From Candidatus Latescibacterota bacterium (GTDB taxonomy: Bacteria > Latescibacterota > UBA2968 > UBA8231), in assembly GCA_965205655.1 (NCBI GenBank), contig CBDBIJ010000044.1, forward strand, positions 1 through 28,971: 28,971 nucleotides of DNA, written 5' to 3'. Made by a program: the position numbers and the translations under genes. Below the pieces are notes generated by a model. The model saw only the letters and a program-made list of their open reading frames with translations. It had not been told where the DNA came from and made no database searches. Of the stretch, positions 2,862 to 15,714 are shown in pieces. Numbering within the stretch: the first letter of the stretch is position 1; every line of letters starts with the position of its first letter.

Positions 2862-4108
2862 GGTATATTCAATCGGTCAATGCAACATTCTCCCCACTAA
2901 TCTAATCATAGGAGATGTTGCACATGGCTCAAATGGGACGACCAGGATTGTCCGCGTCACAGAAGTCGGAGGTATGGCGTCGATGGAAGAGCGGCCAGTC
3001 GCATAGCGATATTGGTCGGGCGCTCGGGAAGCATCCGGCGTCGATTCATGGTGTCATCACCGCCAATGGGGGCATCGTACCAATGCCGCGTCGACGCTCT
3101 CGATGGGCTCTTGCCTGGGAAGAGCGTGAAGAGATCTCTCGAGGTATCGCTGCGGGAAAATCGATACGAATAATTGCGGCCGCTGTTGAGCGTGCACCCT
3201 CGACGGTTAGCCGAGAGATTGCCCGCAATGGCGGGCGGCAAAGGTACCGAGCAAACGTCGCCGACCAAGCAGCCTGGACGCGCGCCAGCCGGCCGAAATG
3301 CTGCCGACTCGCATCCAATCTTCGTTTGCGGCGAGTCGTGGCGGACAAGCTACGCCTGAAGTGGTCACCTGAGCAGATATCGGGATGGCTGAAGCGGGAG
3401 TATGCGCTTTTAGGAAATATGCAGATATCCCACGAAACGATCTATCGAACTCTCTTCATCCAGGCACGCGGGGCACTCAACAAGGACCTCATTGCGCATC
3501 TGCGGACGCGAAGGATGATGCGGCGATCCAAGAAGGCAAGCACACGCGATCAGCCGAGAGGCCGGATCGTCGACGCCGTATCCATCAGCGAGCGGCCTGC
3601 CGAGATCGAGGACCGCGCCGTTCCCGGCCACTGGGAGGGAGACTTGATCTCGGGGTCGAACAACACGCACATCGCCACGTTGGTGGAGCGGCAGTCTCGG
3701 TTCACGATGCTCGTGAAGCTCAACGGCAAAGACACCGAGACCGTTGTCAGAGCGCTGATCAGCCAGGTGAAACGACTCCCCTCCGCGGTGCGGTTGTCCC
3801 TTACCTGGGATCGAGGAATGGAGCTAGCTCGGCACAAGGAGTTCTCGATCGCAACTGACGTCGAGGTGTATTTCTGTGATCCTCAGAGTCCCTGGCAACG
3901 AGGCACAAATGAGAACACGAATCGCCTTCTTCGACAGTACTTCCCGAGGAAGACCGATCTGTCGCCATTCTCCCAAGCCGACCTGAACAGAGTCGCTCTT
4001 CAACTGAACCAGCGCCCGCGGAAGACGTTGGGGTTCGTTTCACCCGCAGAACGCTTCAATGAAGGTGTTGCGTTGACGAAGATGTTGCGTTGACTGGTTG
4101 AACTCGCG
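2862..4108 (+). mobile_element. IS30-family insertion sequence, copy A1 (complete, 1247 bp)
   Basis: Ends defined by identity with the copy at 11452-14207. Imperfect 26-bp IRs: GGTATATTCAATCGGTCAATGCAACA and CGCGAGTTCAACCAGTCAACGCAACA. 3-bp TSD CTT at 2859-2861 and 4109-4111. Confidence 0.95.
2924..4093 (+). CDS. IS30-family transposase
   Basis: Motifs WSPEQIS, ISHETIY, GHWEGDL, LTWDRGME, PWQRGTNENTNRLLRQYFP, LNQRPRKTL. ATG 2924 preferred over 2915 for spacing from the GGAG SD. Confidence 0.95.
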   Translation: MAQMGRPGLSASQKSEVWRRWKSGQSHSDIGRALGKHPASIHGVITANGGIVPMPRRRSRWALAWEEREEISRGIAAGKSIRIIAAAVERAPSTVSREIARNGGRQRYRANVADQAAWTRASRPKCCRLASNLRLRRVVADKLRLKWSPEQISGWLKREYALLGNMQISHETIYRTLFIQARGALNKDLIAHLRTRRMMRRSKKASTRDQPRGRIVDAVSISERPAEIEDRAVPGHWEGDLISGSNNTHIATLVERQSRFTMLVKLNGKDTETVVRALISQVKRLPSAVRLSLTWDRGMELARHKEFSIATDVEVYFCDPQSPWQRGTNENTNRLLRQYFPRKTDLSPFSQADLNRVALQLNQRPRKTLGFVSPAERFNEGVALTKMLR

Positions 4109-7913: not shown

Positions 7914-9053
7914 ATGAACGGCAGGAACGCCCTCACAGCTGAGATCCGCAGCGCGGCGAAGGCGATCGGCTTCGACCTTGTCGGCATCGCTCCGGCAGAT
8001 CCCCTCGAAGGTGCCGAATACTACGCACGATGGCTCGCCCTCGGCTACGCCGGTGAGATGGACTATCTCGTGCGCAATCGGGACAGGAGGACGGACCCGT
8101 CGCAGATCGTACCGGGCGCCAGAAGTGTCATTTGCGTCGGCCTGCACTACATCGGCGCCAATGGTCACAAAAATGCTCCGGCGGAGGACCCTCCTACAGG
8201 TCGCATCGCCGCCTACGCCAGGGGAGACGACTATCACGATGTGATGAAAGAAAAACTCGCCGCCTTGTGGAAAGGCATCTGCGAGATTGCCGGGCCCGCA
8301 GTACGAGGTCGCTACTCCGTCGACACCGCTCCCGTTCTCGAACGCGAGCTGGCTGCCAGAGCCGGCCTCGGATGGTGGGGCAAGAATACCTGTCTCATCG
8401 ACAGACGCGACGGTTCCTACTTCTTTCTGGGCCAGATCATCACCGATCTGGAGCTGGAGTACGACGAGCCCGCCGTCGATCATTGCGGCAGCTGTACCCG
8501 CTGCCTCGAGGCCTGCCCGACCGACGCCTTCCCCGAGCCCTACGTGCTGGATTCCCGCCGCTGCATTTCCTACCTCACCATCGAGCTCAAAGGCGCCATT
8601 CCCGTCGACCTGCGCCACGACATGGGCAGCTGGATCTTCGGCTGCGACATCTGCCAGGACGTCTGTCCCTGGAACAAACAGCCAACCCCGACACGCGAGC
8701 CAGCCCTCGAGCCACGCGACGGCTTGGACAACCCGTCGCTGACGCGGATCCTCGGCATGGATCGCGACGCCTTCAACGCTCAGTTCCGCCACAACCCCGT
8801 CAAACGCGCCAAACGCCGCGGACTCCTCCGCAACACCGCCGTCGCCCTCGGGAATTCCGGATCTCCCGCCGCCATCCCAGCCTTGATCGACGCGCTGAAT
8901 GACGATGAGCCCCTCATCCGCGGCCACGCCGCCTGGGCTTTGGGAAAACTCGGCGGGACCGAAGCCGAGACGGCCCTCAAAAACGCACTGGACTCAGAGG
9001 CCGACGCCGAAGTAATCGCCGAAATCGAACGCGCAATCGAGATGCTGAGCTGA
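7914..9053 (+). CDS. queG: tRNA epoxyqueuosine(34) reductase QueG with C-terminal HEAT-like repeats
   Basis: Motifs YARGDDYH, VDTAPVLER, AGLGWWGKNT, CGSCTRCLEACPT, RRCISYLTIE, FGCDICQDVCPWN, RNTAVALGN, IRGHAAWALG. Confidence 0.96.
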   Translation: MNGRNALTAEIRSAAKAIGFDLVGIAPADPLEGAEYYARWLALGYAGEMDYLVRNRDRRTDPSQIVPGARSVICVGLHYIGANGHKNAPAEDPPTGRIAAYARGDDYHDVMKEKLAALWKGICEIAGPAVRGRYSVDTAPVLERELAARAGLGWWGKNTCLIDRRDGSYFFLGQIITDLELEYDEPAVDHCGSCTRCLEACPTDAFPEPYVLDSRRCISYLTIELKGAIPVDLRHDMGSWIFGCDICQDVCPWNKQPTPTREPALEPRDGLDNPSLTRILGMDRDAFNAQFRHNPVKRAKRRGLLRNTAVALGNSGSPAAIPALIDALNDDEPLIRGHAAWALGKLGGTEAETALKNALDSEADAEVIAEIERAIEMLS

Positions 9054-9208
9054 GAGACGGCGCGACGCGCCTGGAGGCTTCCCCCGGTGGACGGCAAGAC
9101 CTCGCCCGACCTGCGCATCCAAAAAGGTGACACGATCCGAAGACACCTCCAATCGGTGCCCTCTTTTTCTTTTTTTTGTGGTGGTGGGGAAAAATGCGGA
9201 CCTGCAGT

Positions 9209-9384
9209 AGGGTGGACTGGCATGCCGTTCGAACGGATTGAGAGCTCGCAGTCTGGCCGTCAGGATGACGGCCTGCGGGCGAAAACCTCGGAGCGCGCCA
9301 GGGATGGCGCGTGAGCACAGGGATGTGGCCGAATCGGACGAGGCGATTCGGTTAATGAGTGAGAATGGCATGCCAGTCCGCCCT
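9209..9384 (+). ncRNA. Candidate structured RNA or MITE-like element with CsrA/RsmA-type GGA-loop hairpins
   Basis: 22-bp closing stem 9209-9230/9363-9384 whose two mismatches are G-U wobbles on the + strand. Internal hairpins: GGCCGTCA-GGA-TGACGGCC, GCGCGCCA-GGGA-TGGCGCGT, CACA-GGGA-TGTG and CCGAATCG-7nt-CGATTCGG. Confidence 0.55.
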
Positions 9385-9400
9385 CTCACGGGGCCCCACC

Positions 9401-10327
9401 CTATCTATCCATCAACGCCCTAACGAACGCCCCTCCATCAAACGCCTGCAGATCATCAATCTCTTCTCCGAAACCAACCAGCTTGATCGGAACCTCCAAT
9501 TCCTGACACAACGCCAACGCGATCCCCCCTTTTGCAGTACCATCCAGCTTCGTCAGCACCAACCCAGTCACCCCCGTTGCCTCGTGAAACTGCCGCGCCT
9601 GCGAGAGCGCATTCTGACCCGTCGTCGCGTCGAGCACGAGCAGCGTCTCGTGAGGTGCCCCGCCACCTTGCTTCCCGAGAGACCGTCGCACCTTCTTCAG
9701 CTCTTCCATCAGGTTGACCTTCGTGTGCAAGCGGCCGGCCGTGTCGACGATAAGAACATCCGCATCCCTTGACGTCGCAGCCGACACCGCATCGAAGGCC
9801 ACGGCCGCCGGATCGGCGCCGCTCTGGGAGCGCACGATATCGGCGCCGGCGCGCTCGGACCACACCTCCAGCTGGTCGAGTGCGGCGGCGCGAAACGTGT
9901 CGCATGCCGCCACCATCACCCGCTTGCCACACACCCCGTAGCGATGGGCCAGCTTTCCGACCGTCGTCGTCTTGCCGACACCGTTCACCCCGACGACGAG
10001 AATGACATGCGGCTTGTGGGCCAGCGGGGCCGCCGGATCGAAGGCCTCCCGATCCGATTCCACCAGAATCTGCAGCTCGGCTTCGAGGAGGGCGAACACA
10101 TCCTCGAGGCCGGCGCTGTCCGCCTGCTGAAGGCGCTCGCGCATCGCCTCCACGACCTGCATCGATGTATCGACACCGACGTCGGCCCGAATGAGTGCGA
10201 TCTCGATTTCTTCGAGAGCTTCTTCATCGACGACGGCGGAGCTCGAGACAGTCGCCAATCCCTCCATCATGGCCGCGCGGGTCCTGGCCAATCCGGAGCG
10301 GATCCTTTCGATGAAACCGACCGACAC
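9401..10327 (-). CDS. ftsY: Signal recognition particle-docking protein FtsY (NG domain, no long acidic region)
   Basis: Motifs GVNGVGKTTTVGKLA, DTFRAAA, DTAGRL, DATTGQN, TKLDGTAKGG. Confidence 0.97.
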   Translation of the reverse strand: MSVGFIERIRSGLARTRAAMMEGLATVSSSAVVDEEALEEIEIALIRADVGVDTSMQVVEAMRERLQQADSAGLEDVFALLEAELQILVESDREAFDPAAPLAHKPHVILVVGVNGVGKTTTVGKLAHRYGVCGKRVMVAACDTFRAAALDQLEVWSERAGADIVRSQSGADPAAVAFDAVSAATSRDADVLIVDTAGRLHTKVNLMEELKKVRRSLGKQGGGAPHETLLVLDATTGQNALSQARQFHEATGVTGLVLTKLDGTAKGGIALALCQELEVPIKLVGFGEEIDDLQAFDGGAFVRALMDR

Positions 10328-11451: not shown

Positions 11452-11736
11452 CGCGAGTTCAACCAGTCAACGCAACACCTTCGTCAACGCAACACCTTCA
11501 TTGAAGCGTTCTGCGGGTGAAACGAACCCCAACGTCTTCCGCGGGCGCTGGTTCAGTTGAAGAGCGACTCTGTTCAGGTCGGCTTGGGAGAATAGCGACA
11601 GATCGGTCTTCCTCGGGAAGTACTGTCGAAGAAGGCGATTCGTGTTCTCATTTGTGCCTCGTTGCCAGGGACTCTGAGGATCACAGAAATACACCTCGAC
11701 GTCAGTTGCGATCGAGAACTCCTTGTGCCGAGCTAG

Positions 11737-13242
11737 CAGCATGTGGTGAAAGTCGGTGATTTTCTTGCGGCGCGGATGAGGAGCCTCTCCTTACCTTTGA
11801 GCATCAACCTTGCAGGGGAGATGCTGTCATGGCGTTGGGAAAACGGAAGCGCGCGAGCCAAGCTCAGCTGTGGGTGGCGACGCAGCACCTGAGGGCTCCG
11901 GGACATCCTTTTTACAAGAGATTGAATGAGGTGCTGGACAAGCACGGATTCGACGAGTTTGTGGAAGAGCGGTGCACGACGTTTTACGCCGAGGGCGTCG
12001 GTCGGCCCGGCATCCCGCCCGGGGTCTATTTCCGCCTGCTCATGATCGGCTATTTCGAGGGCATCGACTCGGAGCGTGAGATCGCCTGGCGCGTCGCCGA
12101 TTCGCTGTCGTTGCGGGCATTCCTCGGCTACGAGCTCGACAAGGCTACGCCCGATCATTCGACGGTGTCTCGCACGCGCCGGCTGATCGACTTCCAGACG
12201 CATCATGAGGTCTTCGAGTGGGTGTTGAAGGTGCTGGCCACATCGAACCTGCTGAAGGGGAAGACGCTGGGCGTCGACGCCACGACGCTGGATGCCAACG
12301 CCGCCATGCGCAGCATCGTGCGCCGGGACACGGGCGAAAGTTACGAGGAGTTTCTCACGAAGTTGGCCAAGGCCTCGGGCATCGAGACGCCAACGCGAGA
12401 GGATCTGGCCAGAATCGACAAGAAGCGCCCGAAGAAAGCGTCCAATAAGGACTGGGAACACCCGCACGATCCGGATGCCCGCATTACCAAAACGAAGGAT
12501 CGTCGCACCCATCTGGCGCACAAGGTGGAGACGGCGGTGGACATGGACACCCAGGCGATCGTCGCCGTGAGTCTGCCGAGTGCCGATGAAGGCGACACCG
12601 AATCGCTGCCGTGGATGCTGGTGCGAACCGAATTGAACTTGGAGGCCGTGTCGCAGGATCCCGAGGCCAGGAAGCATCTGCATCCCAAACCGTTGTCGGA
12701 AGTCGTCACCGACAAGGGGTATCACAGCAACGAGGTGCTGGTCGATCTCAAAGCCAGTGCCATTCGCAGCTACATTTCCGAACCGGATCGCGGGCGTCGA
12801 GATTGGAAGGACAAAGCGGAAGCACAACAGGCGGTGTATGCCAATCGCCGACGCATTCGCGGCAACCGCGGGCAGGCGCTGCGGCGTAAGCGCGGCGAGC
12901 TGCTCGAACGCCCGTATGCTCATCTGTTCGAAACCGGCGGTATGCGACGGCTGTTTCTTCGGGGCCGACAAAACATCCTCAAACGCCTCGTCATTCACGT
13001 GTGCGGCTGCAATTTCGGCCTCCTCATGCGCACCCTCTTCGGTGCGGGCACTCCGAGGGGTATGAGGAAGGCGTTTTCCCTCATTTCGTCTCTCATCACT
13101 CAGGTTTTCGCGCCTTGGCGCGCTTTGTCGCCGCCCGTGGTTCAACTCTCGGGCACTGCTCGATTTTCGTCGCCATTGGCGGCAACTCGCACCACGAATC
13201 TCAGGCCACCCCAAATCTTCCCAAACGAGGCGCCACGGGCTG
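11737..13242 (+). mobile_element. IS5/IS1182-like insertion sequence (1506 bp) nested in IS30 copy A2
   Basis: 4-bp TSD CTAG at 11733-11736 and 13243-13246; the matching site in copy A1 has a single CTAG. Terminal IRs CAGCATGTGGTG and CAGCCCGTGGCG. Confidence 0.92.
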
Positions 13243-13268
13243 CTAGCTCCATTCCCGATCCCAGGTAA
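11829..13268 (+). CDS. DDE transposase (DUF772/InsH-like N-terminus; IS5/IS1182-like)
   Basis: Motifs GRPGIPPGVYFRLL, PDHSTVSRTR, GVDATTLDANA, VVTDKGY, LERPYAH. The reading frame runs 26 nt past the element's right end. Confidence 0.88.
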   Translation: MALGKRKRASQAQLWVATQHLRAPGHPFYKRLNEVLDKHGFDEFVEERCTTFYAEGVGRPGIPPGVYFRLLMIGYFEGIDSEREIAWRVADSLSLRAFLGYELDKATPDHSTVSRTRRLIDFQTHHEVFEWVLKVLATSNLLKGKTLGVDATTLDANAAMRSIVRRDTGESYEEFLTKLAKASGIETPTREDLARIDKKRPKKASNKDWEHPHDPDARITKTKDRRTHLAHKVETAVDMDTQAIVAVSLPSADEGDTESLPWMLVRTELNLEAVSQDPEARKHLHPKPLSEVVTDKGYHSNEVLVDLKASAIRSYISEPDRGRRDWKDKAEAQQAVYANRRRIRGNRGQALRRKRGELLERPYAHLFETGGMRRLFLRGRQNILKRLVIHVCGCNFGLLMRTLFGAGTPRGMRKAFSLISSLITQVFAPWRALSPPVVQLSGTARFSSPLAATRTTNLRPPQIFPNEAPRAASSIPDPR

Positions 13269-14207
13269 GGGACAACCGCACCGCGGAGGGGAGTCGTTTC
13301 ACCTGGCTGATCAGCGCTCTGACAACGGTCTCGGTGTCTTTGCCGTTGAGCTTCACGAGCATCGTGAACCGAGACTGCCGCTCCACCAACGTGGCGATGT
13401 GCGTGTTGTTCGACCCCGAGATCAAGTCTCCCTCCCAGTGGCCGGGAACGGCGCGGTCCTCGATCTCGGCAGGCCGCTCGCTGATGGATACGGCGTCGAC
13501 GATCCGGCCTCTCGGCTGATCGCGTGTGCTTGCCTTCTTGGATCGCCGCATCATCCTTCGCGTCCGCAGATGCGCAATGAGGTCCTTGTTGAGTGCCCCG
13601 CGTGCCTGGATGAAGAGAGTTCGATAGATCGTTTCGTGGGATATCTGCATATTTCCTAAAAGCGCATACTCCCGCTTCAGCCATCCCGATATCTGCTCAG
13701 GTGACCACTTCAGGCGTAGCTTGTCCGCCACGACTCGCCGCAAACGAAGATTGGATGCGAGTCGGCAGCATTTCGGCCGGCTGGCGCGCGTCCAGGCTGC
13801 TTGGTCAGCGACGTTTGCTCGGTACTTCTGCCGCCCGCCATTGCGGGCAATCTCTCGGCTAACCGTCGAGGGTGCACGCTCAACAGCGGCCGCAATTATT
13901 CGTATCGATTTTCCCGCAGCGATACCTCGAGAGATCTCTTCACGCTCTTCCCAGCCAAGAGCCCATCGAGAGCGTCGACGCGGCATTGGTACGATACCCC
14001 CATTGGCGGCGATGACACCATGAATCGACGCCGGATGCTTCCCGAGCGCCCGACCAATATCGCTATGCGACTGGCCGCTCTTCCATCGACGCCATACCTC
14101 CAACTTCTGTGACGCGGACAATCCTGGTCGTCCCATTTGAGCCATGTGCAACATCTCCTATGATTAGATTAGTGGGGAGAATGTTGCATTGACCGATTGA
14201 ATATACC

Positions 14208-14338: not shown

Positions 14339-15714
14339 GAGCTATAATCAGAAGGTGTGGAAATAGACAGACGGCGATCCTACCCTTCCTTTGTAATTAG
14401 CCATCACAAACGCCGGGGCTATCCCGGCAGGAAGAGGAGAATCGCCATGGCACAACCTAAGCCGAGCACGACGGAAATGTCCATGCCCACGTTCGAAACG
14501 CTGGAAGAGTGGACACGCTCGCAGATTCAGTCGCTGATGCAGTCGGTTCTGGATGAAGAAGTCACCCATGCGCTGGGACGGTCACGGTACGAGCGACAGG
14601 CACCGTTGGACGCAGCCGGCGGCTACCGCAATGGGTACGGGAAGCGGCGGCGACTGTCCTTGACCTCGGGCACGATCGAGGTGAAACGCCCTCGGGTGCG
14701 GGGTCTGGAAGAGCGATTTGAGAGTGCGGTACTGCCGCTGTTCGCCCGGCGCACCCAAGAAATAGGTCAGCTGCTGCCAGAGCTTTACCTGCACGGTTTG
14801 TCTCAGGGCGACTTCGAGCTGGCGCTGCGCGGCCTGCTGGGCAAGGGAGCGCCTTTGTCGGCGTCCTCGATCGCTCGTTTGCGTGAGAAGTGGATCGTCG
14901 AATACAACGCCTGGCGCAGCCGACGACTGGATGACCGCGAGCTCGTCTACGCCTGGGCGGACGGGATCTACGTCAAAGCCGGTCTCGAGAAGCAAAAAGC
15001 CGCTCTCCTGGTGGTCATCGGCGCGATGAGCGATGGGCGCAAAGAAGTCCTGACGATTGTCCCGGGCTATCGCGAATCGACAGAGTCGTGGGCGGGCGTA
15101 CTGCGCGATCTGCGTGACCGCGGACTGAGCGTGGCGAAGTTGTTGGTGGCGGATGGGCACCTGGGTATCTGGGCGGCCCTGGCAGAGGTCTGGCCGGAGA
15201 CGGCTGAACAGCGATGCTGGAATCACCGCATCCTGAACGTGCTGGATAAGCTGCCAAAACGCGTGCAGGTCGAAGGGCGGCACCTGCTGACACAGATCCC
15301 GTACGCGCCGACCCGTCAGGAAGCGACGAAACGTCGCGATCAATTCGCCAAACGGTTTCGCCGCGAGTGTCCAGACGCCGTCGATATCCTTGAGCGCGAT
15401 TGGGACCGTATGGTGACATTCTACGACTTTCCCGAGGCCCACTGGCAACACCTGCGCACCACCAACGTCGTCGAAAGTCCCTTCGCTTCGGTACGGTTGC
15501 GAACCAATGCGGCCAAACGATACAGGAAGGTGGCCAATGCCACCGCCCTCATTTGGCGGGTACTGATGGTGGCCGGGAAACGATTCCGGCGACTCAATGC
15601 ACCGCATCTCATGGCTGACGTCTACGCCGGGGAGTGCTACGAAAACGGATCACCCATCGCGCAAAGGAAGAAGATCGCCGCCTGAGTCGTTTACACACCA
15701 TTTGAGCCAAGCTC
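14339..15714 (+). mobile_element. IS256-family insertion sequence (complete, about 1376 bp)
   Basis: 25-bp imperfect IRs GAGCTATAATCAGAAGGTGTGGAAA and GAGCTTGGCTCAAATGGTGTGTAAA. Flanking repeats GGGTCACC (14331-14338) and GGGTCACG (15715-15722) match at 7 of 8 positions. Confidence 0.92.
14447..15685 (+). CDS. IS256-family (Mutator-like) transposase
   Basis: Motifs YRNGY, LYLHGLS, WADGIYVK, LVADG, QRCWNH, LRTTNVVES. GAGGAG SD before ATG 14447. Confidence 0.94.
   Translation: MAQPKPSTTEMSMPTFETLEEWTRSQIQSLMQSVLDEEVTHALGRSRYERQAPLDAAGGYRNGYGKRRRLSLTSGTIEVKRPRVRGLEERFESAVLPLFARRTQEIGQLLPELYLHGLSQGDFELALRGLLGKGAPLSASSIARLREKWIVEYNAWRSRRLDDRELVYAWADGIYVKAGLEKQKAALLVVIGAMSDGRKEVLTIVPGYRESTESWAGVLRDLRDRGLSVAKLLVADGHLGIWAALAEVWPETAEQRCWNHRILNVLDKLPKRVQVEGRHLLTQIPYAPTRQEATKRRDQFAKRFRRECPDAVDILERDWDRMVTFYDFPEAHWQHLRTTNVVESPFASVRLRTNAAKRYRKVANATALIWRVLMVAGKRFRRLNAPHLMADVYAGECYENGSPIAQRKKIAA

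Follow-up and report, generated by a model that had tools for sequence, protein, structure and literature searches.

A dispersed intergenic repeat with GGA-loop hairpins in Candidatus Latescibacterota and its likeness to TwoAYGGAY/YPAL-like elements

The 176-base structured element located between queG and ftsY in a genome of Candidatus Latescibacterota bacterium is a real, selectively maintained repeat, and its dispersed nature is virtually certain. It forms a new subfamily of TwoAYGGAY/YPAL-like repeats. The model that we somewhat favour is a non-autonomous mobile element, with CsrA as the likely binding partner of the RNA made from its GGA strand. In the following, the window denotes the whole stretch of DNA that was analysed, 28,971 nucleotides of contig CBDBIJ010000044.1 (assembly GCA_965205655.1).

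A previous sequence-only reading had described a closing stem, four inner hairpins and an additional ACGGA, and all coordinates given for them match the sequence: the stem (9209-9230/9363-9384) comprises 22 bp with two G-U pairs and zero mismatches, the hairpins occupy 9244-9280, 9293-9312, 9316-9327 and 9329-9351, and the ACGGA is located at 9233-9237. The GGA motifs it listed are present, but a fifth GGA, a three-base bulge at 9290-9292, had been missed. The placement between convergent queG and ftsY was confirmed, and folding of both strands, as had been proposed, returned the structure described, with -114.9 kcal/mol for the + strand (z -9.6; 0 of 200 shuffles as good) and a weaker -92 kcal/mol for the - strand (z -6.4). 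The window copy is the long variant, in which an optional cassette supplies a third GGA hairpin. Its parts and its neighbours are the following:

7914-9053, + strand: queG, upstream neighbour, outside the element (TIGR00276, 394.9 bits)
9162-9177, + strand: T-rich tract between queG and the element (seen in the sequence; not called by the terminator search)
9209-9230, + strand: 5' arm of the basal stem, pairing kept while the sequence varies (68.5% pairwise identity, seven copies of the source genome)
9231-9239, + strand: conserved GA(A/G)CGGATT segment, 5' side of a purine-rich internal loop, containing a GGA (copy comparison)
9244-9280, + strand: hairpin H1 with CAGGAUG loop (fold; GGA in 57 of 63 aligned H1 loops)
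9287-9315, + strand: hairpin H2 with CAGGGAUG loop, on a CUC/GAG helix with the three-base GGA bulge (9290-9292) (fold and copies)
9316-9353, + strand: optional 38-base cassette composed of H3 (CACAGGGAUGUG) and H4 (in four of the seven copies of the source genome)
9354-9362, + strand: conserved AATGAG(C/T)G(A), 3' side of the internal loop (copy comparison)
9363-9384, + strand: 3' arm of the basal stem (66.9% identity, same copies)
9401-10327, - strand: ftsY, convergent neighbour, outside the element (TIGR00064, 340.1 bits)

H4 is without a conserved GGA, and the purine-rich internal loop likely consists of tandem G-A pairs. The 3' arm ends 16 bases from the stop codon of ftsY on the opposite strand. 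The T-rich tract may possibly mark the end of the queG transcript, and a similar tract precedes the copy on contig C109. A short alternative ORF on the minus strand (8994-9389) spans the element. Elsewhere in the window, two 99% identical IS30-family copies lie in opposite orientation at 2862-4108 and 11452-14207, the latter interrupted by an IS1182-family element (ORF 11829-13268), and the IS-rich segment 14357-27119 contains two IS256, one IS30 fragment, one IS3, a short ligase-D-like ORF and a sulfatase.

The sequence-only reading had wavered between a Csr-type sponge RNA and a MITE/REPIN-like repeat, to be told apart by copy number. BLAST and nhmmer recovered seven full copies in the source genome (G000), on contigs C44, C133, C131 (two copies), C17, C56 and C109, besides a partial match on C18, which identifies the element as a dispersed repeat and not as a unique sRNA gene. 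All copies are intergenic, and their neighbours are unrelated (polA, dnaE, a citrate synthase, a NUDIX gene and an oxidoreductase among the 20 of 64 neighbouring ORFs scanned against Pfam); within the same 20 of 64 ORFs of this IS-rich genome, one IS256 and one DDE transposase were found near copies. Pairwise identity amounts to 95% in the H1 core and 93% in the cassette and falls to 68.5% and 66.9% in the two stem arms, and despite these divergent arms every copy retains a closing stem of 17-22 bp. The H3-H4 cassette is cleanly absent from the three copies that do not carry it. At loci L031, L046, L059 and L064, a different two-hairpin insert is located between H2 and ATGAGCG, in the slot of the cassette, and the site after H2 therefore looks like an expansion slot.

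The source genome also harbours a second dispersed family of long-stem repeats (L123-L127; C135:20361-20462, C122:20633-20694, C109:5208-5255, C92:3997-4111 and C18:34762-34863), and the H3-H4 GGA cassette occurs within this second scaffold as well, in its C18 copy and in several copies of genome G020. The C18 element is adjoined (near 34715-34760) by a repeat of 43-51 bases that is present at about 15 other places of the source genome; it likely represents the end of an insertion sequence, with a DDE transposase next to it.

Covariation in the element is strong. In 63 model-aligned copies, 89.2% of the cells pair, compared to 37-47% in slid-partner controls, and double-sided changes occur at 39 of 48 pairs, counts that are inflated because this alignment (A3) was fitted to the model. 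On the GGA strand, G-U and A-C pairs stand at 48:14 in 38 of 42 scored copies, which are related to one another; for this count the pairing register was chosen on Watson-Crick pairs only, and of 62 loci, 20 were skipped for want of anchors and a further four did not reach the stem threshold. A point against the favoured explanation is that single-stranded DNA tolerates G-T pairs as well. Conservation of the GGA loops in homologues, put forward earlier as a check, was indeed found. H1 lay outside the search pattern and kept its GGA in 57 of the 63 copies. The majority of the loops have the sequence CAGGAY or CAGGGAUG, and 14 of 63 H2 loops read AUGGAU or ACGGAU. Among 28 model-selected copies, GGA was present in H1 of 24 and in H2 of 21, and the A/G/G/A columns of the H1 loop were 93-100% conserved, whereas most stem columns were variable. 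The counts for H1 and H2 were 19/23 and 21/23 in genome G116 and 12/14 and 13/14 in genome G004. Selection very probably acts on the fold of the GGA strand.

Conservation is not confined to the hairpin loops: the GGA bulge (window 9290-9292) is 96% conserved in the 28 model-selected copies from relatives, and in the same copies the conservation of the hairpin loops is equalled by that of the CUC-GGA bulge helix and of the GAGCG/AATGAGCG loop. This equal conservation of non-loop motifs speaks for a reading in which loops, bulge and internal loop are marks for the mobilising enzyme or for another protein, recognised in single-stranded DNA or in RNA, so that the likeness to CsrA sites would be incidental and the repeat selfish. 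We consider this reading rather unlikely; further evidence on it is given below with mobility and with csrA.

When species-representative genomes were scanned with the H2 pattern, 55 stretches emerged, from genomes that bear the labels Latescibacterota/Handelsmanbacteria, Gemmatimonadetes, Nitrospirota and Planctomycetota; the pattern gave zero matches in viral contigs; a BLAST search of plasmids likewise gave zero matches. With a covariance model built from 38 short-form copies, the element was detected in 14 of 36 genomes of the family and in none of 24 from other families in a first sample, and in 17 of 63 and none of 77, respectively, in a larger one. Carrier genomes contain from one to at least 52 elements, the upper figure being the limit set on scored candidates, the range within the family is 0 to at least 52, and two divergent doublets were encountered (L021, L040).

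The genomes G012 and G024, which are about 95% identical, were compared at eight assessable orthologous sites (leaving out G024:C169:21132, at contig ends; locus L090 was not compared to G012). Five sites are shared, two show partial deletions and one is a clean filled/empty pair, in which the filled copy carries the 5-base direct repeat GGCGG at both ends. This pair, compared without an outgroup, can equally have arisen by deletion between short repeats. Copying of the stem arms from the target is ruled out at this one clean empty site, from which the arms are absent, and the arms therefore travel with the element. Flanking direct repeats are not in excess in 28 copies (4.86 bases versus 4.99 with shuffled pairing), and no recurrent transposase family or neighbour was found among the 268 ORFs flanking 62 loci; both results count against our best explanation. 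A retron or a transposon end was rejected, since no reverse transcriptase was present among 24 window proteins scanned and the IS256 and DDE transposases are not recurrent. Run contig X2 carries the element at the same site as the window copy, and a joint skipping the whole element was seen neither among the joints listed for run contigs X2-X5 at the window locus (15 of 83) nor among those listed for X1-X4 at the two C131 copies. In G012 and G024, a structured repeat of about 190 bases often lies just upstream of the element (for example L101:735-945, on G012:C58); it has at least ten matches in each of these genomes and none in the source genome.

The element shares with REP/REPIN sequences that it is a palindromic intergenic repeat, but here the centre is conserved and not the arms. 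The GTAG said to precede it in the manner of REP elements (9207-9210) in fact reaches into the stem, and of the seven full copies the window copy alone has it; a Y1/RAYT transposase (PF01797) was not found in the incomplete assemblies of the source genome and of three high-copy relatives (G004, G012, G024). The REP/REPIN-like alternative is therefore not supported. This missing Y1/RAYT enzyme also stands against loops that serve as enzyme marks, a reading with which the decay and deletion of copies agree. The other half of the earlier proposal, a MITE-like repeat with CsrA-type sites, fits the seven copies in the source genome, the at least 52 in relatives and the presence or absence at orthologous sites. 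From such comparisons of genome sequences we infer that the element is mobile.

The absence of a clear promoter, as had been remarked, was borne out by zero promoters and zero terminators in 8950-9600, and no fixed -10 box lies upstream across 28 copies, in both cases judged by the sigma-70 consensus only. The search of Rfam that had been suggested for CsrB, RsmY/Z/X, 6S and SRP gave no hit at gathering score in the window, and the element is therefore not 6S, SRP or CsrB. The best weak match was PrrB/RsmZ (22.6 bits against a cut-off of 44, E 0.0027); in addition, an 18-base exact stretch is common to the - strand and Ysr224 of Yersinia in Rfam. A single Csr-sponge gene, the first possibility raised by the sequence-only reading, is not supported, in view of the RsmZ score and of the lack of promoter and terminator. 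A related proposal treats every copy as a Csr-sponge sRNA gene with transcription of its own, the copies being paralogues and equivalents of CsrB/RsmZ. It could account for the long form with up to five GGA motifs, the weak RsmZ match, the wobble bias towards the GGA strand and the five of eight sites common to two genomes, and it is at odds with an RsmZ score of half the cut-off, the missing promoters and terminators, copy numbers from 0 to more than 50 with partial deletions, and ten csrA-positive genomes without the element; we judge it improbable. Like CsrB, RsmY and RsmZ (Rfam clan CL00106), the element has several GGA motifs in hairpin loops, but it scores below their cut-off, has a long closing stem in place of the terminator and is dispersed and polymorphic. 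The setting also differs, as csrA of the family belongs to a flgL-fliW-csrA cluster of the protein-antagonist type.

The upstream gene has the direction of the GGA strand at only 16 of 42 loci, as assigned by a rough gene caller, which at the C109 copy gave the upstream gene the wrong orientation; of the 42 loci, 21 lie between opposite-strand genes and 9 between GGA-strand genes, and the flanking genes are convergent at 7 and divergent at 5. Given this orientation and the lack of a fixed -10 box, the source of a GGA-strand transcript is the main difficulty for the favoured model. Alternatively, the element could act mainly in the mRNA of a neighbour, where its hairpin, on either strand, would serve the stability or processing of the 3' end, the role proposed for YPAL. 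Both strands fold well, the end of the element is often located 4-25 bases from an opposite-strand stop codon (16 in the case of ftsY), and YPAL is co-transcribed with upstream genes (PMC2229807). This function leaves the wobble bias to the GGA strand and the conservation of the loops without explanation, and it appears very improbable.

For the model of a mobile element with CsrA-binding RNA, the distribution of csrA is of importance. In the source assembly, which is 84% complete, csrA was not found. In relatives, csrA follows flgL and a gene that is FliW-like by position and by eye; the source genome has fliE, and its flgL is cut off by the end of contig C25, reaching base 14614 of 14615, so that the absence of csrA likely reflects an assembly gap. 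In the larger sample, csrA was found in 12 of 17 element-bearing and in 10 of 46 element-free genomes of the family (p 0.0007, with kin that are not independent), and in genus g13 in 3 of 5 carriers and 0 of 23 non-carriers; the smaller first sample showed no significant association (10/14 versus 11/22, p 0.30). Against a strict link, genomes G027, G143 and G135 retain intact GGA loops, and none of csrA, fliW and fliE was found in them; in G116, which has fliE and at least 23 copies of the element, neither csrA nor fliW was found. Ten csrA-positive genomes of the family are without the element.

The resemblance of H3 to the CsrA consensus, pointed out in the sequence-only reading, holds: CACAGGGAUGUG with a flanking base agrees with 11 of 12 positions of the SELEX consensus RUACARGGAUGU (PMC4347634). 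This agreement and the co-occurrence with csrA argue against marks for an enzyme, and loops persisting in genomes in which no csrA was found argue in favour of them. As the GGA loops are conserved and the missing csrA likely reflects an assembly gap, binding by CsrA stays plausible, and the balance tips slightly towards it.

Among known repeats, the closest in design is TwoAYGGAY (Rfam RF01731), for which CsrA binding and a mobile-like expansion were proposed (PMC2864571; PMC4333381; bioRxiv 10.64898/2026.09.22.753630). Both share two GGA-loop hairpins, one after the other, on a long basal stem of low conservation, a tandem-GA internal loop (which the present element would have by its predicted pairing), many intergenic copies with a wide range of copy numbers, divergent doublets (here L021 and L040) and variants with additional GGA hairpins. 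When the RF01731 model, with a gathering cut-off of 43 bits, was run on 401 bases, nothing matched at E<=10; 11 homologous loci gave no match, and two genome searches gave 0 of 1 and 0 of 5, no control genome matching in these two either. The strict AYGGAY loop is replaced here by mostly AGGAY/AGGGAU, and the GAGCG...GAGCG loop closes both hairpins, whereas in the TwoAYGGAY seed rows, compared by eye, it lies within the second hairpin. In addition, the phyla are different, and the GGA bulge and the optional cassette are not among the TwoAYGGAY features described in the accessible text. The element thus works like TwoAYGGAY but is not filed as a member, because it fails the RF01731 score.

With YPAL/RU-2 of Yersinia, as portrayed in the reports on it (PMC2229807, PMC2759123, PMC2267715), it shares a length of about 170 bases, internal inverted repeats, ends without TA and dozens of intergenic copies, and the published RU-2 sequence contains a GCGCCA-GGATGGCGC hairpin and, behind it, another short hairpin with a GGA, an arrangement that resembles H2-H3 (PMC2759123). 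Filled and empty orthologous sites, a trait of MITEs of the YPAL/RU-2 type, were found here as one clean case in eight, which may be a gain or a loss. YPAL is credited in those accounts with target duplications of 3-26 bases, whereas here none are in excess and a single 5-base case was observed. No prior description of the subfamily was found in the literature on TwoAYGGAY or on Latescibacter CsrA; preprint supplements may cover these lineages.

The explanation that we somewhat favour starts from what is observed, a dispersed, gene-less repeat in which a long stem and GGA-loop hairpins are maintained by compensating changes. A transposase acting in trans would move the element, often to just behind stop codons, and selection would act on the GGA strand in its single-stranded form. 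For the stem, variable as it is, the role would be that of a scaffold that presents two GGA hairpins, or three in the long variant, to the CsrA dimer once the GGA strand is transcribed. Jointly, the copies might constitute a low-level CsrA decoy, or CsrA might protect the RNA. Physiological sponging of CsrA is doubtful, though a real possibility. A broader proposal, which we hold to be unlikely, is a CsrA sponge, both mobile and modular, of uncultured bacteria that have flagella and the FliW type of CsrA control; it would spread only with CsrA, its copy number tuning free CsrA and its valency changing as a GGA cassette, swapped between two unrelated scaffolds of one genome, is gained or lost.

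The TwoAYGGAY/YPAL-like class is already published, and the subfamily itself answers neither what moves such repeats nor whether they bind CsrA. It extends the class to uncultured lineages outside Proteobacteria and Bacillota, and because two- and three-loop versions occur in one genome and carriers and csrA largely coincide in one genus, it offers convenient material for a binding test.
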